Below are positions 29,328 to 36,036 of a DNA stretch of 64,000 nt, one piece after another (the first letter of the stretch is position 1; each line of letters begins with the position of its first letter). The stretch is from Alphaproteobacteria bacterium (GTDB lineage Bacteria > Pseudomonadota > Alphaproteobacteria > DATDPM01). Made by a program: the position numbers and the translations under genes. The stretch is taken from the NCBI GenBank assembly GCA_036475545.1, contig JAZGAE010000155.1, positions 2,291-66,290 on the forward strand, given 5' to 3'. Under the pieces are notes generated by a model. That model was not told the DNA's origin. It saw only the letters and a list, made by a program, of their open reading frames with translations, and did not search any database.

Positions 29328-30449
29328 TCACGCGGCCGAGGTCTGCGCCGGCACCGGAGGGGGATGCCGCCACCGGGCTCGGAACAGGACGATGCCCCCG
29401 GCAATGATGGGGACGATGGCGTTGGCGTATAGCAAGGGCACGAGAGAGGGCACCTTGGCCGCGACGTTTTGGAGACCCAGCCCGGCCATCTGCACGAGAA
29501 TCATCAGCCCCGTGGCGAGAAGGATGCGGAGGGCCTGGCCACGCCGGGCGAAGTCGCCCGACAGCAGGATAGCCAAGGCGATAAAGGTGAAGGCAAGCGC
29601 CAACAGGGGGGACACCAGCCGCTGGTGTCCCTCGGCCCTCAGCTTGTAGTAGTTGTTGACGTCGTCCGGGGAGTTCGAGGGCCAGAACAGCTCGCTCAGG
29701 AACCGCTCACGTGGCTCACGCCACCGGGTCTTCCCGGTCTCCTTATCGCCGCTGACGTCCAGGTCGTACCGGTCGAAGTACAGTAACGAGAGCTCACCGT
29801 CCTCCTTCTCGACCTGTTGACGGTTGCCGTTGATCAAAACGACGCGCGGACCAGACTCGGTTTCAACCAGGATGCCGGACTCCGCTATCATCGTGACCGG
29901 CTTGCCGGGGATGCGGCTGTCGTGGATCAGAATACCCTGGAGTTCCCCGCTCGCCCGCCGGGCGCGCACATACACCGTGATGCCATCCGACAGCGTGTTG
30001 AACACGCCCTCCTGGAGCAACACCAAGGAATGGTCGTTGCGGATCTGGAACTGCAAGTCCTTGAACTCCCGGAAGGACGCCGGGAGGAGATAGATCGTGA
30101 AGCCGTAACACAGCACCATCACGGCGGTGGCCACCAGCAGGGCGGATTTCGCGAGGCCCGTCTGGCTGACGCCCGCCGCCCGCATCACCACCAGCTCGCT
30201 GTCCATCGTGAGCCTGTTGTAGACGAACGCGACCGCCGTGAATAAAGCGATCGGCAGGATGATCGCCAAGAAGGTGGGAAGCATCAGCAGCGACAGGTGC
30301 AGGAAGGTTGCGAAAGAGACGCCCCGGTTGACGATGAGGTCGATGAGGCGCAGCGATTGGCTCAGCCAAATGGCGCAGGTCAAGGCGACGGCGATGAACA
30401 GCGTGGACGCCAGAACCTGGCGCAGGATGTATCGGGTGATCCCGTTCAT
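29328..30449 (-). CDS. lptF: LPS export ABC transporter permease LptF
   Basis: N-terminus MNGITRYILRQVLASTLFIAVALTCAIWLSQSLRLIDLIVNRG. YjgP/YjgQ family. Confidence 0.85.
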   Translation of the reverse strand: MNGITRYILRQVLASTLFIAVALTCAIWLSQSLRLIDLIVNRGVSFATFLHLSLLMLPTFLAIILPIALFTAVAFVYNRLTMDSELVVMRAAGVSQTGLAKSALLVATAVMVLCYGFTIYLLPASFREFKDLQFQIRNDHSLVLLQEGVFNTLSDGITVYVRARRASGELQGILIHDSRIPGKPVTMIAESGILVETESGPRVVLINGNRQQVEKEDGELSLLYFDRYDLDVSGDKETGKTRWREPRERFLSELFWPSNSPDDVNNYYKLRAEGHQRLVSPLLALAFTFIALAILLSGDFARRGQALRILLATGLMILVQMAGLGLQNVAAKVPSLVPLLYANAIVPIIAGGIVLFRARWRHPPPVPAQTSAA

Positions 30450-30508
30450 GCTCGGAGTTTACAAACTCGGAATGAAATAGCGAGCAAACAAATAATGCGG
30501 CGGCGACC

Positions 30509-31348
30509 TCATGCCCTCGTCATCCAGAACGAAGTGTTGGCGACATCCGATGCCGGCAGCGCCTCGAAATACCCCTTCGTGTCCAAGTAGTGCACCGGGA
30601 GCAGCGGCCGCCATTCCCTCGAGTTCAGAAGGACGCAGGCCAGCAGATACTGCTCGTTGTACATGCGTTCGGTGAAGAGCTCGCTGTACTCGTAAGGAAG
30701 ACAGATGTCGTGTACGTGAACGAGGACTCCGGGCGGCGTCAGCGGCAGGATCTCAAGGAAAAACCGGGTCGTGTCCGTCCCGTTGAAGGCGTAGTGGCTC
30801 CCGTCGAGGAACAGGACGTCGTTGCGTTTCAACACCAGGAAAAGATCGAGGTCCACGTCGAGAAGGTTGTCGCGGATGACGCGGTCCGAGATCCCGTCGA
30901 TGTCCGCTCTGGGGCTCGGGTCTATGCTCGTGATCTCGCAGGCGATGCCGAAGTCATCGAGCGCCTTGCGGAAAAACTTGGTGCTGTTGCCGCTGCCGAT
31001 CTCGATGATCCGGGACGGGCGCCTCGCGGCGGTGAGCGCATAGGCGACCCGGGCGTCCACGAAGCTGAAGTAGCCGTTGTCCCAATAAGGCGTCCTCGGG
31101 TCGTCGCTGTTCCGGGGCACGGCCTCGATCTCGGGACACGCGAGATAGGGACGCAGTTCCTCCAAAGTGGCGGCGAACGTCTCCGAGTTCTCCAGGAGGA
31201 TGCCCTCGAGCGAAGCGTAGAGGTAGGACGACGGACGCGGGTTTATCGCCGTGCGTTCCTTGTCGTAGATGACGTGGACGCGGTCCGGCTTGGTCACGAG
31301 ACGGCGGATGTTCTTGATTACGCTCCCGAGACGGGCGTTTCGCTGCAT
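30509..31348 (-). CDS. class I SAM-dependent O-methyltransferase, CmcI/TylF(macrocin O-MT)-like
   Basis: SAM motif IIEIGSGNSTKFF. Acidic/metal motif VLFLDGSHY...VLVHVHDI, typical of the CmcI/TylF sugar O-methyltransferase fold. Local GC is about 58%, against about 68% in the flanks. Confidence 0.6.
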   Translation of the reverse strand: MQRNARLGSVIKNIRRLVTKPDRVHVIYDKERTAINPRPSSYLYASLEGILLENSETFAATLEELRPYLACPEIEAVPRNSDDPRTPYWDNGYFSFVDARVAYALTAARRPSRIIEIGSGNSTKFFRKALDDFGIACEITSIDPSPRADIDGISDRVIRDNLLDVDLDLFLVLKRNDVLFLDGSHYAFNGTDTTRFFLEILPLTPPGVLVHVHDICLPYEYSELFTERMYNEQYLLACVLLNSREWRPLLPVHYLDTKGYFEALPASDVANTSFWMTRA

Positions 31349-31593
31349 GTGAAGGTCCCTCGATCGTGACGGTCCCGTCGTCGCCGGCGCTCGAGGCAGC
31401 TTGACCCCGGGTTCCTTGCGAAGTCAACACGTCGGCGAGTGACGGGTCGGCGGGCCGGAGATTCTGGCGCCCGGACCGGTCCGTCGCCACGCCCCCGGGG
31501 CATGACGGCGTTATTCGGTGGCCTTTGACGGGAAGTATTTGGTAAGCAGGGAAGCCTGCTCGTCGAGCGCGGGATGGTGGCGGGCACGCTCGG

Positions 31594-32283
31594 GTGGAGA
31601 GGACGCGAGGACCGGTGTTCGGGGTATCGAGACTTCGGCGACTTCGCCGGATCGGCGGAAGGAGACGGGGCTTTGGGCTTGGATGCGCCGCCGCCGTGGC
31701 GCTGGTGGTCGCCGTGGCGCCGGCTTGGCCGGCCCCTCCTGCGGGGCGCGGCGCGGGCCCGGCGGGCGAGCAGATGGCATCTGGAACGGCGGGTCCTGAC
31801 GGCGGGGCGGTTCAAGCCCGCGACCGGACGGCCGGCCCGCGCCCACAGGCGGGGGAGGGGGAAAGTGTCCCGCAGACGGCGCCGCGAGAGGAGCGTGACG
31901 AGGAAGCGAGGAACGAATTGACGCCCGCGCCTGGGGCGGCCGCGACCGGAGAGGACGCCCCCGCGCTCGCGGAGGAAGAGGAGCCGTCGCACCTCGACCT
32001 CGACGGCATGAAAGCACGGCTGCGCGAGACAGAGGCCATCGGTTACTTTACCAAGCTCGAGCTCAGGATCGAGGTCAACGACCTGCTCGACGCGTTCCGC
32101 GTCTATCACGAAAGCGAGGGGCGGGGGACCATCGCGCAGTTGCACGAGCGGTACGACCTGCTTCTGTTGAAAATGCGTACCCTGCTCCAGGACAGCGACC
32201 CTAAACTAGCCCATGCCATTTCCGCCTCGCGCGAGAGCGTCTGGGTCCTGCTGTCCGATCCGGAGAAGTTCGTCAATTTGTGA
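31594..32283 (+). CDS. hypothetical secreted protein (Arg-rich n-region signal, Pro/Ala/Glu-rich linker, about 90-aa helical C-terminal domain)
   Basis: N-terminus with hydrophobic core CAAAVALVVAVAPAWPA. GC3 is high from about codon 30 onward. The C-terminal domain (GMKARLRETEAIGYFTKLELRIEVNDLLDAFRVYHESEG...) matches no family I recognise. The start is uncertain. Confidence 0.4.
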   Translation: MERTRGPVFGVSRLRRLRRIGGRRRGFGLGCAAAVALVVAVAPAWPAPPAGRGAGPAGEQMASGTAGPDGGAVQARDRTAGPRPQAGEGESVPQTAPREERDEEARNELTPAPGAAATGEDAPALAEEEEPSHLDLDGMKARLRETEAIGYFTKLELRIEVNDLLDAFRVYHESEGRGTIAQLHERYDLLLLKMRTLLQDSDPKLAHAISASRESVWVLLSDPEKFVNL

Positions 32284-32289
32284 GTCCGA

Positions 32290-32565
32290 ATGAGGAAGCA
32301 CCCCATGGCCATAGCCCGAAGGATCGCGCTCGGAACAACCGTGGTTGCCGTTCTCACGGCCCCCTTTTCCATTGCCGCCCAGGAGGACGTCGAAAAGGTC
32401 AAGAAGGACCTCTTTGCGGTGATCACCCTCAGAGGGAACCCCTGCGGCGCGGTCATAAGCTTCGAGCGTCTCGGCGAAAACGACTACAACGCCATTTGCC
32501 AGACCGGCGACCGCTACCACATCTTTGTTTCTTCCGAGGACCGGGTGGGCGTTGAGAAATACTAA
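32290..32565 (+). CDS. small secreted protein (about 65-aa mature, two Cys); hypothetical
   Basis: Sec signal (MAIARRIALGTTVVAVLTAPFSIAAQ). GC about 57%. It starts 7 nt after the upstream gene. A PepSY-like beta-rich fold is a loose guess only. Confidence 0.45.
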   Translation: MRKHPMAIARRIALGTTVVAVLTAPFSIAAQEDVEKVKKDLFAVITLRGNPCGAVISFERLGENDYNAICQTGDRYHIFVSSEDRVGVEKY

Positions 32566-32771
32566 CGTCCGTCCGCCGAAGCGCGGTGAGCCATGCTGCC
32601 GTCAGGCGCGAGCAGCGAAGCCGAGTCGGCCGACGCCCAGTGCGCCGCGCCGTGTTAGCCGGGGAGAGTGACGAGCGCGGGATCGTGGCGAGCGGGCCTC
32701 GCGCGTCTCGACCGCCCGCCTCGGGACCGCCGTCCGCACCTTGCCCGCCCGCCGGGTCTCGATCGAACGAG

Positions 32772-33461
32772 GTGACCTTGGAAACGGAAGGACAGTTCAA
32801 GCCGGCCAGCGCGATCAGCCCTGAAGAGCGGAAGCAAGAGTGGATGCGCTACTACTCTTACAAGCGCATCCACGAGCAGCTGATGCAGGTACAGATGCTC
32901 AAGGGCCTTTCCATCAACACCGTTCTGGAGATCGGGCCGTACTACGGGCTGGTGACTGCCATGCTCGACAACGCGGGCTACGAGGTCACCACCATGGACC
33001 TGAGCCCGCGAAGCTTCGAGAGACCCGACCGGCCCCACGTCGTGATGGACCTGACCGCGATCGAGGCCGGGAAGCTGAACGGATTCGACTGCATCATGTG
33101 CTGCGCGACGCTGGAGCACATCACCTTCGAGCAGGCCACGGCGGCGCTGCGCGCCTTTCGCGCCGCGAGTCCCCGCTACGTTGTGATTTCCGTGCCCTAC
33201 CAGGGAACCCAGCTGTTCTTCCAGACCTATCTGAACCGCCACAAGGCGAGCGAGCACTTTGCGATCAAGAAGCTGCGGTTCCTACGCGAATTCAGATTCG
33301 ACGCCGAGGCCGACCCCTACGGCCATAAGTGGGAGATCGGCTACCGCGGGTGGTCGCTCGGGCGGTTCGAGCGCGTGCTGCGCGGCGTCGGCTTCGAGAT
33401 ATTGAGGCGGGACTTCTCCTACCCGTCTTACTCCGTGTTCCACGTGCTGGAGCCCGTTTGA
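32772..33461 (+). CDS. class I SAM-dependent methyltransferase (Methyltransf_11/23-like)
   Basis: Motifs LEIGPYYG...VTTMDLSP and CATLEHI. The N-terminal ~60 codons of the track ORF from 32586 are an Arg/Pro-rich high-GC stretch and probably not coding. Alternative start: ATG at 32844. Confidence 0.6.
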   Translation: MTLETEGQFKPASAISPEERKQEWMRYYSYKRIHEQLMQVQMLKGLSINTVLEIGPYYGLVTAMLDNAGYEVTTMDLSPRSFERPDRPHVVMDLTAIEAGKLNGFDCIMCCATLEHITFEQATAALRAFRAASPRYVVISVPYQGTQLFFQTYLNRHKASEHFAIKKLRFLREFRFDAEADPYGHKWEIGYRGWSLGRFERVLRGVGFEILRRDFSYPSYSVFHVLEPV

Positions 33462-33527
33462 CGCGCGGCGCGCGGTCGCCGACAGGGCCTCTTTGCCGGC
33501 CTCGCCGAGCGCGGCCCCTCGCGAAGC

Positions 33528-34193
33528 CTAGACGATGATGGTGTTCACGAAGTAGAAGCTGCCGTTGATCCACAGCCCGGTAAGCGCATCGGGATTGTGC
33601 GCATAATCGACGATCCTGAGGACCATTTGAAGGTTGGAGGGGCCCGCCCGGGCCGGGTCGTGAACGAAGACCTCGAGGGTGCCGTCGTCTTGCACCAGCG
33701 CAAACACTTCGGCCTTCGGCCCGCAGCCCACGAGACGGGCGTTGCCGCCCGCGAGGCGCTCCACGCTTACCGCGACGGTTCGCCCTGCGTCCCGGACCCC
33801 ATCGCGCCCTGGTTCCGCGTTCGACGACGCGGGTGGGAGCGCGCCGCCCAGGAGACGTCCGCCCGCGGGCCCTGCCGCAGGGGCGGTCTGGGGGAGCGCG
33901 TCGGAACCGTGCGCGGCCATTGGCCTGGCGGCGGCGGCGTCGAGTTCCGCGGCGGCGACGGCGACCGGCGCGGGCGTCCCGCCGGGCGTCTCCGGAACGC
34001 GGCACACCGGGGCGCCCTCGATGATCCGGAGCATCGCGCAGTCCCTCCCTGCCATCGCCGAAACGGTATGGTCCGACACGCTCTTTCCGGTAAAGGCGTA
34101 GCTCAGCCCGGAAGCGGCCAGCGACGCTATGGTGATCGGGTCGCAAGCGGCAAGCAAGACGGGCAGCACCAGTATCGAAAGCACCTTCGTCAT
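33528..34193 (-). CDS. hypothetical lipoprotein
   Basis: Lipobox in MTKVLSILVLPVLLAAC-D. The 221-aa Ala/Pro/Gly-rich mature part matches no family I recognise. Confidence 0.5.
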   Translation of the reverse strand: MTKVLSILVLPVLLAACDPITIASLAASGLSYAFTGKSVSDHTVSAMAGRDCAMLRIIEGAPVCRVPETPGGTPAPVAVAAAELDAAAARPMAAHGSDALPQTAPAAGPAGGRLLGGALPPASSNAEPGRDGVRDAGRTVAVSVERLAGGNARLVGCGPKAEVFALVQDDGTLEVFVHDPARAGPSNLQMVLRIVDYAHNPDALTGLWINGSFYFVNTIIV

Positions 34194-34533
34194 GGGGCCT
34201 GTCTGTTACCAGATGAAGGATTTACCCTGTCAGAAAGTGCCTAATGAACCCTTAATAACCGGTTGTAATTAAGACAAAAAGCTACGTGGAAATGAGCCGC
34301 GCCCTCGTCCCGCCTGTATCAAGGATATCACCGGTCGAGGTTGGCCGACGGTGCGGCCTGGCGCCGCGTTGCCCGCGCCGCGGGCGGCGCGCCGGCTCAG
34401 CCGTGGCAGCGGCAAAGTTGCGCTTCCCTTTGCCGCCGGTATCGGTAGAGTCGGGTGGCCCGAACCGTCTGGGCGTTCGGCACGAACCGCCTGAATCCTC
34501 GGGCCGCCCCCTCGATCAGCGCAAGAGACTCTC

Positions 34534-36036
34534 ATGCAAATCACTTTCTCGACCCCGAAACTGCCGCGGACAGGGACCATCGCCGTGGGCGTCCTGGAAG
34601 GGAAGAAACTCACGCCAACCGCCGCTGCTCTGGACAGACGCACGGGCGGAGCGGTGGCCAAGGCGCTTTCTGCGAGCCGTTTCACCGGAAAGGTGGGGGA
34701 GATCCTTCCCATCCTCTCGCCGGCGGGGCTCGCCGTCAGGCGCGTCGTCCTCTATGGAATGGGGAAGGCGGGCGAGGTCGACGATTTGAGGATGCAGGCC
34801 GCGGGCGGCCACATCGTCGCTCACCTGGCCGGCACCGGGGAAAGCGCCGCCGCGGTTGCCGTGGACGCGGTGAAGGGCGCCAAGGCCAAGCCCGCCGCGA
34901 TGGCCGCGAACCTGGGATACGGCGCCAGTCTCAGGTCGTATCGCTTCGCTCGGTACCGCACCCGGGAGAAGAGGCAGGAGAAACCGAGCCTCAGGTCCAT
35001 GACCGTGATGGTGAGGGATCCACTGCCCGCGAGGAAGGCTTACGCCGTCCTCGATAAGGTCGCCGACGGCGTCTTCTTCACCCGCGACCTGGTATCGGAG
35101 CCCGCCAACGTCCTCTATCCGGAGACCCTGGCCCAGCAGGCCAGGAGCCTGACCAAGCTCGGCGTCAAGGTCGAGATCCTGGACGAGAAGAAATTGAGGA
35201 GGCTGGGCATGGGCGCGTTGCTCGGCGTTGCCCAGGGAAGCGTCCGCCCGCCCCGGGTCGTGGTCATGCAGTGGACAGGCGCGCGCAAGGCCAGGAACAA
35301 GCGCCCCGTGGCCTTCGTCGGCAAGGGAGTGACGTTCGATACCGGCGGCATTTCCATCAAGCCCTCGGAGGGCATGCACGACATGAAATGGGACATGGCC
35401 GGAGCCGGCGTGGTCATGGGCCTGATGAAGGCCCTGGCCAGGCGCAAGGCCAAGGTCAACGCGGTCGGCGTGGTCGGGCTGGTCGAGAACATGCCGTCCG
35501 GCTCGGCCCAGCGGCCCGGGGACATCGTCACCTCGATGTCGGGACAGACCATCGAGGTTCTCAACACCGACGCCGAGGGCCGCCTGGTGCTCGCCGACGC
35601 CCTTTGGTACTGCCAGAACCGCTTCAAGCCCAGGGCGATGGTGGACCTCGCCACGCTGACCGGCGCCATCATCGTCGCCCTCGGCAGCGAGTACGCGGGG
35701 CTGTTTGCGAACAACGACAAACTGGCCGAGGGCCTCGTGGCCGCCGGCAAGGCGACGGGCGAAAAGGTTTGGCGGCTGCCGCTGGCGGAGGCGTACGACA
35801 AGCTGGTCGACTGCGACGTCGCCGACATGAAGAACATCACCGGCGTCCGCGGGGCGGGCAGCATCACGGCGGCCCAGTTCCTTCAGCGCTTCGTCAACAA
35901 GGTCCCTTGGGCCCATCTCGACATCGCCGGAGTCGCGTGGGGGAAGAAGGACGCACCCACCGTGCCCAAAGGCGGGACCGGATTCGGCGTGCGCCTTCTC
36001 GACCGCTTCGTGCACGACAACTACGAGGAAAGATAG
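34534..36036 (+). CDS. pepA: leucyl aminopeptidase
   Basis: 500 aa. M17 signature NTDAEGRLVLADAL. Metal ligands (VGKGVTFDTGG). Conserved pepA-holC order. Confidence 0.9.
   Translation: MQITFSTPKLPRTGTIAVGVLEGKKLTPTAAALDRRTGGAVAKALSASRFTGKVGEILPILSPAGLAVRRVVLYGMGKAGEVDDLRMQAAGGHIVAHLAGTGESAAAVAVDAVKGAKAKPAAMAANLGYGASLRSYRFARYRTREKRQEKPSLRSMTVMVRDPLPARKAYAVLDKVADGVFFTRDLVSEPANVLYPETLAQQARSLTKLGVKVEILDEKKLRRLGMGALLGVAQGSVRPPRVVVMQWTGARKARNKRPVAFVGKGVTFDTGGISIKPSEGMHDMKWDMAGAGVVMGLMKALARRKAKVNAVGVVGLVENMPSGSAQRPGDIVTSMSGQTIEVLNTDAEGRLVLADALWYCQNRFKPRAMVDLATLTGAIIVALGSEYAGLFANNDKLAEGLVAAGKATGEKVWRLPLAEAYDKLVDCDVADMKNITGVRGAGSITAAQFLQRFVNKVPWAHLDIAGVAWGKKDAPTVPKGGTGFGVRLLDRFVHDNYEER

Follow-up and report, generated by a model that had tools for sequence, protein, structure and literature searches.

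Sugar O-methyltransferases are usually encoded in a glycan locus or in a natural-product sugar locus. Two such enzymes, the spinosyn rhamnose 4'-O-methyltransferase SpnH and the mycobacterial sugar O-methyltransferase MeT1, are the closest structural neighbours of MT1, a protein encoded next to the LPS transport genes lptFG in an uncultured Rhodospirillales-like alphaproteobacterium. MT1 and four further genes lie at 30450–34533 of the analysed 64,000-nucleotide stretch of DNA (hereafter the window), which is the exact gap between the starts of lptF and pepA (Table 1). An initial annotation, which had placed the block correctly, described it as a lower-GC insertion that could be one horizontally acquired module. 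The site resembles the intergenic hotspots with variable cargo known between core genes, since the pepA–lptF spacer is filled by different genes elsewhere, but it differs from them in lacking an integrase, a tRNA and att-like boundaries and in its small cargo with host-like GC3. Our analysis indicates that MT1 with MT2, P2 with P3, and Lipo are distributed independently of one another, and therefore the five genes do not constitute a single acquired module. We consider it likely that the spacer was filled stepwise by these three accessory units rather than by one recent island. Presence and absence, linkage, folds and composition are reported as observed, whereas all biochemical roles given below are ones that we infer.

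Table 1 Features of the pepA–lptF interval and its flanks (positions in the window).
Feature	Positions	Strand	Remarks
lptF (left flank)	29328..30449	-	Pfam LptF_LptG, E 3.9e-72
MT1	30509..31348	-	279 aa, Methyltransf_24
Repeat copy A	31564..31585	+	22 nt, 8 nt in front of the P2 ORF
P2	31594..32283	+	Exported, 229 aa (GTG start); 195 aa from 31696 in the public assembly
P3	32290..32565	+	Small periplasmic, 91 aa (86 aa from 32305); homology to the gene downstream of P2 homologues
Repeat copy B	32672..32693	+	20/22 identical to copy A; inside the 212-bp spacer upstream of MT2
MT2	32778..33461	+	227 aa, Methyltransf_23/11-like; Pfam PF13489, PF08241
Lipo	33528..34193	-	221-aa lipoprotein, lipobox LAAC, Cys17
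pepA (right flank)	34534..36036	+	Pfam Peptidase_M17, E 2.5e-130; holC next

The interval between lptF and pepA

The neighbouring gene order (lptF-lptG-lptD-surA-pdxA-rsmA on the left, pepA-holC on the right) was found as previously described. Five ORFs occupy the interval, and they are real genes, because each of the five shows a coding-type pattern with GC3 well above GC2 and has homologues elsewhere. They are indeed extra relative to the usual arrangement: a short pepA–lptF spacer is common to E. coli (266 bp in K-12) and most of the Alphaproteobacteria sampled, and it stays below 450 bp, at 42–402 bp, in 26 of the 33 relatives having both genes. An HMM scan for all five families within 10 kb of lptF, run with a positive control, gave no match in 61 species representatives. 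Stellaceae-like genomes hold unrelated cargo in this spacer, in the form of a single polytopic membrane protein or two (508–622 aa).

The comparison of the interval across relatives that the initial annotation had proposed revealed patchy presence at a conserved site, one of the features by which genomic islands are recognized. All five genes are present in the window and in two further assemblies (L062 and L163), and with 98–99.6% identity the three represent one species. The closest reference genome has none of the block's genes, and L001 (LptF 64% identical) has an empty spacer of 376 bp. L063 (LptF 76%) contains only the divergent pair MT2–MT1, separated by a spacer of 380 bp, and L074 (LptF 71%) carries MT1 directly upstream of lptF. 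Along this series, which is ordered by LptF identity alone and in which the order of gain depends on few contigs, P2–P3 would have inserted into the MT1–MT2 spacer in the lineage of the window, although P2–P3 and Lipo may instead have been lost in L063 rather than gained later. The occurrence of the complete set in three assemblies and the retention of MT1 beside lptF in L063 and L074 could also be taken to mean that this site ancestrally contained the genes and that relatives later lost them, with no insertion at all. We regard this as very improbable, as the three assemblies amount to one species, E. coli has the short spacer in common with most of the sampled Alphaproteobacteria, and the cargo of the Stellaceae-like genomes is unrelated.

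Base composition did not bear out the proposed low-GC island. For 30509–33461, where about 57–60% GC had been stated against about 68% in the flanks, we measured 64.6%, and the flanking genes are themselves mostly in this range (lptF 63.3%, lptG 65.1%, lptD 64.2%, pepA 66.9%). Values of 58–60% are reached in short stretches only (30200–30999 and 32000–32599), and GC climbs to 69–76% over 31400–32199 and 33600–34199. The whole interval has 65.3% GC compared with 67.8% for the window, corresponding to the 12th–15th percentile among windows of the same size. The codon-usage scan that had been suggested as a check returned host-like GC3 values for MT1 (0.85), MT2 (0.87), Lipo (0.83), P2 (0.78) and P3 (0.77), as judged from 49 coding-like ORFs of the window (0.84 ± 0.06; 5–95% range 0.73–0.94). 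With GC at the 15th percentile and GC3 inside the host range, neither measure deviates in the manner expected of a genomic island. Only the dinucleotide signature stands out, being moderately raised and among the top 3% of 4-kb windows, because of which some part of the interval may be of foreign origin.

Signals of mobility were similarly scarce. No tRNA or Rfam element was found in the interval, Pfam returned no integrase or transposase domain, no repeat flanks the entire 30450–34533, and copies of MT2, P2 and Lipo were absent from the 72,556 plasmids searched. The earlier statement that nothing marks the block as mobile is correct for these elements but missed a 22-nt direct repeat, which flanks the P2–P3 sub-unit only.

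Several observations are nevertheless in line with one horizontally acquired, lower-GC module of five cooperating genes for envelope or glycan modification: the block adjoins the LPS transport genes, its families were not detected near lptF in the 61 representatives, three of its products carry export signals as the initial annotation had noted, Gloeothece has a distant homologue of MT1 (32% identical) within a glycosyltransferase/GtrA/ABC-transporter locus, and the dinucleotide signature is raised. Against this stand the GC content of 64.6–65.3%, which the flanking lpt genes equal, the host-like GC3, the presence of only the methyltransferases in L063, the separation of P2–P3 from methyltransferase and lpt genes in all 86 loci inspected, and the lack of mobility genes, tRNAs, block-flanking repeats and plasmid copies. 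This explanation is improbable and, as far as a single module is concerned, already largely refuted. The main value of the present analysis lies in a correction: the block is neither a low-GC island nor a single module, and it should accordingly be dropped as a candidate 'LPS methylation island'. The locus is ordinary and offers three modest leads, namely MT1 ahead of lptFG, the P2–P3 pair, and the variability of Lipo.

The methyltransferases MT1 and MT2

MT1 is a cytoplasmic class I SAM-dependent methyltransferase, which matches Pfam Methyltransf_24 (PF13578; 41.4 bits vs a threshold of 26.3) with residues 115–215 over the full 105-position model and combines a Rossmann-like fold with the motif I loop (acidic-x-G-x-G-x-G/S). 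The fold is of the cation-dependent O-methyltransferase type. These enzymes are defined by a metal-binding acidic triad and metal-dependent activity, and conserved acidic and His residues of MT1, as putative metal ligands, fall at their metal-binding positions. The previous assignment of MT1 as a CmcI/TylF-type O-methyltransferase is not backed by Pfam, in which no match to CmcI (PF04989) or TylF (PF05711) was obtained, nor one to Methyltransf_3. Identity to the CCoAOMT/Methyltransf_3-like group, mycobacterial MeT1, SpnH, TrmR and CmcI amounts to only 12–19%. MT1 differs further by about 90 additional residues at its N-terminus and by a conserved extension at its C-terminus (EQYLL...SFW), features that no solved structure matches.

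MT2 is likewise a cytoplasmic class I SAM-dependent methyltransferase and belongs to a small, mainly alphaproteobacterial family (117 homologues, each of about 210–270 aa). The earlier Methyltransf_11-like label was confirmed: within its Pfam matches (Methyltransf_23/11/12/25), both PF13489 (32.8 bits vs 27) and PF08241 (26.6 vs 21.2) exceed their thresholds. As in generic Methyltransf_23/11 enzymes, the SAM-binding half is reached by profile searches, with the generic B. cereus methyltransferase 3CC8 as top PDB match (E 9e-6) and UbiG at E 2e-3; unlike them, MT2 belongs to a tight 117-member family marked by invariant motifs not shared with others (W22, Y25, K29, R30, ..., H183, W185, E186). 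No NCBIfam equivalog model matched MT2 at cutoff (MftM 22 bits vs 200). While the ORF opens at 32586, the start was set at 32778 because of the family alignment and the non-coding codon statistics across 32586–32777. The spacer upstream of MT2 gave no Rfam match and showed no excess of RNA structure.

Both genes recur as a pair in L063, L064, L070 and L073, the last three of which are unrelated contexts, yet the pairing is not obligate, with MT2 occurring without MT1 in L069 and L071 and MT1 without MT2 in L066. No glycosyltransferase, sugar-nucleotide or O-antigen gene lies beside MT1–MT2 in any context seen. As the first of the three units, the two divergently transcribed genes would most likely encode enzymes that O-methylate a single cytoplasmic substrate in succession, possibly an envelope-bound sugar or glycolipid precursor.

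MT1 is probably transcribed together with lptFG, because a gap of only 59 bp separates it from lptF and no terminator-like site was found between them; this operon is deduced from spacing, and a simple scan detected no promoter-like site. In three related lineages, with LptF 71–76% identical to that of the window, MT1 precedes lptF in the same orientation at a distance of 54–107 bp. Together with the cation-dependent O-methyltransferase fold and with MeT1 and SpnH as top neighbours, this arrangement could point to a lineage-specific LPS-modifying methyltransferase (MT1 with or without MT2) that is coupled to lptFG and methylates a sugar or phosphate of lipid A, core or O-antigen prior to export, with the remaining genes as bystanders. 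However, the structural lead over non-sugar O-methyltransferases is less than one Z unit, no LPS biosynthesis gene is linked, and MT1 orthologues of 55–66% identity reside in unrelated, non-envelope contexts, namely beside a two-component system with phasin genes, beside amino-acid catabolic genes, or beside an ABC transporter for branched-chain amino acids. MT2 is also found in non-envelope contexts elsewhere, and P2–P3 never occurs with lpt genes. Methylation of glycans or LPS is a conceivable role, while the specific coupling to LPS export appears rather unlikely to us. Having become the leading gene in front of lptFG in a single uncultured clade of Alphaproteobacteria, MT1 provides a testable connection of LPS export to a new step of methylation.

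The P2–P3 cassette

The N-terminus of P2 is rich in Arg and includes a hydrophobic segment. A disordered linker rich in Pro, Ala and Glu connects it to a helical C-terminal domain, which is conserved and spans about 95 aa. Its 68 database homologues have the C-terminal domain alone in common (50–59% identity), most carry a lipobox signal, and more than 527 matches were obtained in JGI metagenomes. AF2 modelled residues 160–229 with pLDDT values of 86–94 and the linker with values below 55, and a fold search against the PDB returned no match (best E 1.6). In agreement with the earlier remark that the three non-methyltransferases have no obvious family, no Pfam or NCBIfam model matched P2, P3 or Lipo.

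P3 has a signal peptide and a mature part of about 60 aa with two invariant Cys residues, its invariant positions being D40, L41, L47, G49, C52, C70, R75, Y76, V86 and K90. It is 37–40% identical to the products of the genes directly 3' of P2 homologues, and in 81 of 86 loci P2 is followed by a P3 gene, with the contigs of the other five stopping too early. P3 is an obligate partner of P2. No conserved third gene was found next to P2–P3, and within 6 kb none of the 86 loci contains MT1, MT2, Lipo, lptF or pepA. The closest described proteins are those of the PepSY_2 family (PF13670), which P3 resembles in its length of about 85 aa, signal peptide and beta-rich C-terminus (G-x-RY-x-V-x-V...GRV). 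Five of 22 P3 homologues match this model over its full length, though weakly and below threshold (best 18.8 bits vs 24.3, E 1.6e-3), whereas P3 of the window itself does not match it. Only the P3 family has the conserved pair of Cys residues and is obligately paired with P2. P2–P3 is a widespread, strictly paired, uncharacterised two-gene periplasmic cassette that merits a family description. In this second, self-contained unit, the helical-domain protein P2, either exported or tethered, and its small, disulfide-bonded periplasmic partner would presumably form a complex in the periplasm.

The 22-nt repeat around this cassette occurs in two copies in 64 kb, compared with 0.01 expected by chance, and the similarity of copy A stretches to about 45 nt. 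Deleting the DNA between copies A and B would leave a spacer of 321 bp, which is near the 380 bp of L063, and we read the repeat as a putative insertion scar. P2–P3 of locus L107 is also flanked by a repeat, the upstream copy of which takes in the stop codon of the gene next to it. It would be a long shot to regard P2–P3, with its more than 500 copies in soil metagenomes and its constant set of two genes, as a recombinase-less mobile envelope cassette that inserts intergenically and duplicates about 20–45 nt of its target; if true, this would represent an undescribed route for moving a periplasmic two-protein system.

The lipoprotein Lipo

The third unit is formed by Lipo, which starts with MTKVLSILVLPVLLAAC-DP and carries the LAAC lipobox at residues 14–17, in accordance with the pattern [LVI][ASTVI][GAS]C; the lipobox Cys is kept in its homologues (835 at E ≤ 1e-3). 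Its N-terminal module (GKSVSDH...DC...R...C) and its C-terminal domain are conserved, and a linker of low complexity lies between them. Proteobacterial SPOR-domain lipoproteins have the same lipobox and the same N-terminal module, which measures about 50 aa (GKS-x-SDH...DC...R...C), and the module occurs fused to SPOR domains in other, longer proteins. In contrast to those, Lipo ends in another conserved domain (FAL-QDDGTLEVF-H...INGxFY), about 80 aa long, that has no Pfam model, and neither SPOR (PF05036) nor any other Pfam domain was matched by Lipo or its full-length homologues. An association of Lipo with the envelope or the cell wall is probable, because its N-terminal module is common to SPOR-domain lipoproteins. 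Between strains it is hypervariable, with about 20-fold more variation than the neighbouring sequence, suggesting that it is exposed to selection or that its alleles are frequently exchanged.

Gene content and composition of the lptF–pepA interval

The interval at 30450–34533, exactly delimited by the start codons of lptF and pepA, is an accessory locus of an ordinary kind, occupying a conserved intergenic site and containing further members of known enzyme classes and two uncharacterised, widespread envelope protein families. Gene order, linkage statistics, folds and composition were established directly, whereas we infer roles and transcription. The surrounding gene order assigned at the outset (lptF-lptG-lptD-surA-pdxA-rsmA on one side, pepA-holC on the other) is confirmed by the gene calls and Pfam assignments of a near-identical public contig. 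With 99.57% identity to contig JAZHCD011531039.1 (NCBI GCA_044240385.1), the window represents a strain variant of the same organism. The 89 differences from public contig L062 are concentrated at 31992–32071 (P2 linker) and 33996–34112 (Lipo), both low-complexity regions of exported proteins, and the protein sequences of MT1, P3 and MT2 are 100% identical.

The proposal of five genes was borne out, as all five show the genome-typical coding pattern (GC3>>GC2) and have homologues elsewhere: the cytoplasmic SAM methyltransferases MT1 and MT2, the exported P2, the small periplasmic P3 and the lipoprotein Lipo. Alternative ORFs at 30590–31369 (+), 31318–32145 (−), 33597–34244 (+) and 33292–34146 (−) lack GC3>GC2, and public annotation and homologues favour the five chosen frames. 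A longer MT2 ORF from 32586 was rejected, because codon statistics over its first 64 codons are of the non-coding type and the homologues begin at the position of 32778. Searches of the spacers for riboswitches or other RNA elements gave no Rfam match, the P3–MT2 spacer folds worse than shuffled sequence, and a sigma-70 promoter scan of the interval, uninformative in an alphaproteobacterium at 65% GC, returned nothing.

Coordinates of genes, direct repeats and spacer cargo
Feature	Sequence	Position	Strand	Remarks
lptF	window	29328–30449	−	
MT1	window	30509–31348	−	279 aa
Repeat copy, upstream	window	31564–31585		8 nt before P2 ORF
P2	window	31594–32283	+	229 aa; 195 aa if start 31696
P3	window	32290–32565	+	91 aa; 86 aa if start 32305
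Repeat copy, downstream	window	32672–32693		spacer before MT2
MT2	window	32778–33461	+	227 aa
Lipo	window	33528–34193	−	221 aa
pepA	window	34534–36036	+	
Repeat copies	L107	5642–5664 and 6640–6662		
Stellaceae-like cargo	L009	6405–9902		also L003, L005, L008, L011, L059
Stellaceae-like cargo	L026	3262–4788		

While the initial annotation was right about genes and position, its GC figures were not reproduced: the stretch 30509–33461, given as 57–60% GC, measures 64.6%. The whole interval has 65.3% GC compared to 67.8% for the window (12th–15th percentile among equal-sized windows), and instead of flanks at about 68%, the adjoining core genes are equally low (lptF 63.3%, lptG 65.1%, lptD 64.2%). 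GC inside the interval ranges from 58% to 76%, a swing that follows from amino-acid composition, with lower values in the methyltransferase and P3 stretches and higher ones in the Pro/Ala-rich linkers. GC3, the codon position most sensitive to foreign origin, amounts to 0.85 for MT1, 0.87 for MT2, 0.83 for Lipo, 0.78 for P2 (conserved domain 0.83) and 0.77 for P3; the mean of the window's 49 coding-like ORFs is 0.84 ± 0.06. Direct measurement of GC and GC3 thus ruled out a low-GC island, and the block is not compositionally foreign. Only the dinucleotide signature is mildly anomalous (62.8 versus 42.3 ± 11.3; top 3% of 4-kb windows), a deviation for which the roughly one quarter of the interval that is non-coding or low-complexity may be a sufficient explanation.

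The pepA–lptF spacer in relatives and the units of the block

With LptF as query, 61 loci were collected from species-representative genomes; the best match, from an uncultured alphaproteobacterium, was only 64% identical, followed by Stellaceae, Rhodovibrionaceae and other Rhodospirillales. The pepA–lptF spacer spans 42–402 bp in 26 of the 33 loci containing both genes, and this divergent arrangement recurs in Escherichia coli K-12 with a spacer of 266 bp; the empty site is therefore ancestral. Within 10 kb of lptF, none of the five proteins was found in the 61 loci by tblastn and family HMMs, for which a positive control worked. In seven Stellaceae-like loci the same spacer holds other cargo, 1.7–3.7 kb long, that codes for a single polytopic membrane protein or a pair of them (508–622 aa, no Pfam family), so envelope-type genes have landed repeatedly at this site. 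As stated initially, tRNA, integrase and transposase genes are absent, and no repeat brackets the whole block. In L163, a 98.2% identical contig of the same species, all five genes occur in the same order, showing that the full block is stable within the species. Plasmid copies of MT2, P2 or Lipo were not found, and literature searches on lptF/pepA with a methyltransferase and on Methyltransf_24 returned nothing relevant.

The five genes had been read as one module, but metagenomic contigs with close homologues show the block to be a mosaic of three units, namely MT1+MT2, P2+P3 and Lipo. What stands of the proposed horizontally acquired insertion is that the genes are extra, at a cargo-accepting site, and that an envelope link is plausible; neither a single module nor a foreign composition was found. 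Contig L063 (LptF 76%, MT1 71% and MT2 79% identical to the window) has no genes other than MT2 and MT1 in its pepA–lptF spacer; the two are separated by 380 bp, and MT1 lies 54 bp upstream of lptF. In L074 and L075, MT1 (68% identical) lies directly upstream of lptF-lptG-lptD. The two methyltransferase genes also occur together in three unrelated contexts: adjacent and convergent beside two-component system and phasin genes (L064) or a branched-chain amino-acid ABC transporter (L073), and separated by one gene amid amino-acid catabolic genes (L070). MT1 was found without MT2 in L066, and MT2 without MT1 in L069 and L071.

Methyltransferases MT1 and MT2

MT1 passes Pfam Methyltransf_24 and has a confident predicted structure (pLDDT 92). 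Only a core of about 160 residues aligns, at 12–19% identity. The previous label "CmcI/TylF-type" is adequate at superfamily level, as the MT1 family profile matches CmcI weakly (E 9e-4), but not at family level, as the Pfam CmcI and TylF models gave no match. Invariant residues E115, G117 and G119 (SAM loop), D181, G182, H184 and H212, together with the near-invariant H210 and D213, would fit a metal-dependent O-methyltransferase, and sugar O-methylation by MT1 is a lead. MT2 passes both Methyltransf_23 and Methyltransf_11, in agreement with its original Methyltransf_11-like assignment, and its compact family (117 members) has only generic solved relatives. Single-sequence searches for solved structures with MT1 and MT2 as queries yielded nothing useful.

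MT1 is probably co-transcribed with lptFG, given the same-strand gap of 59 bp, the lack of a terminator-like site and an arrangement conserved in three lineages. As neither methyltransferase has an export signal, both probably work on a shared substrate in the cytoplasm. The most attractive guess, favoured by lptF adjacency and fold neighbours, is that they methylate an envelope glycan or LPS precursor; we consider it doubtful, since the same pair occurs in non-envelope contexts elsewhere. The envelope link suggested initially is plausible; glycan tailoring is at most a candidate function.

MT1 orthologues with 55–58% identity in L066 (1–10131) and L070 (8689–14634) lie beside the same amino-acid-metabolism gene set, comprising Creatinase_N/Peptidase_M24, PALP and Amidohydro_3 genes, with proline racemase and TauD in addition in L066. 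This neighbourhood could mean that this methyltransferase clade acts on something other than a glycan. Plasmid homologues of MT1 are distant (28–45% identity), with uninformative or unannotated contexts except for one cyanobacterial glycan locus. On this Gloeothece verrucosa plasmid (NC_014533.1; L166, 4537–9705), a 32% identical homologue is divergent to a second methyltransferase gene and adjoins glycosyltransferase, GtrA and ABC-transporter genes; no other member of the wider MT1 family was seen in a glycan-type setting.

The P2–P3 cassette and Lipo

What P2 homologues have in common is limited to a C-terminal domain (about 95 aa, 50–59% identity), ahead of which lie a lipoprotein-type signal and a Pro/Ala-rich linker that varies in length. 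A P3 homologue follows on the same strand within about 30–230 bp in 81 of 86 P2 loci, the other five contigs ending too early, while MT1, MT2, Lipo, lptF and pepA are absent within 6 kb of the cassette in all 86. No third gene conserved beside the pair was found, and JGI metagenomes contain more than 527 copies. The conserved P2 domain is a predicted helical bundle (pLDDT 86–94) without a match in the PDB (best E 1.6). P3 has a signal peptide, two invariant cysteines and a weak, below-threshold likeness to PepSY_2; its family profile retrieved nothing useful among solved structures. P2 and P3 probably assemble as a periplasmic complex. At the P2 N-terminus (31594–31720), where homologues have a canonical lipobox, the aligned Cys31 of the window's protein is preceded by an Arg-rich stretch without a hydrophobic core and followed by a hydrophobic segment, so that this P2 may instead use a Sec/Tat-like signal or a membrane anchor.

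The cassette is bracketed by a 22-nt direct repeat (20/22 identical, similarity extending to about 45 nt), present in just these two copies in 64 kb against a chance expectation of 0.01. Removing one copy with the intervening DNA would leave an MT1–MT2 spacer of 321 bp, similar to that of L063 (380 bp). One further case was detected among 48 cassette loci with enough flank: in the unrelated locus L107, a 23-nt repeat of different sequence (about 42 nt extended) brackets the cassette, its upstream copy covering the neighbouring ORF's 3' end with the stop codon. In a control, 0 of 240 mismatched pairs reached 21 nt. These repeats fit a cassette insertion with a long duplication of the target, although two cases do not suffice to establish a mechanism. 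That P2–P3 is a mobile cassette generating such duplications, the only reading of the locus with real novelty, seems to us quite improbable.

No sign of a functional tie of P2/P3 or Lipo to the methyltransferases was seen at this locus or in the loci compared. Lipo, with 835 homologues and a canonical LAAC lipobox, is a lipoprotein probably associated with the envelope or cell wall. It shares its lipobox and a GKSxSDH...DC...R...C module with longer lipoproteins ending in a SPOR domain, but has another conserved domain, about 80 aa long, at its own C-terminus. Comparison of the window with L163 revealed 81–90% identity over 33600–34100, in contrast to at least 99% in the flanks. Of the 62 substitutions, 44 are non-synonymous and the other 18 (over 177 sites) synonymous. 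dN/dS is about 1.3–1.8 across the N-terminal module and linker but 0.22 for the C-terminal domain, a pattern that looks like allelic replacement or diversifying selection on the lipoprotein. Residue 18 of Lipo, following the lipidated Cys, is Asp (C-D-P), where homologues have Ala or Gly. Asp at this position is an inner-membrane retention signal in E. coli, and the localisation of Lipo in this species may thus differ from that of its homologues.
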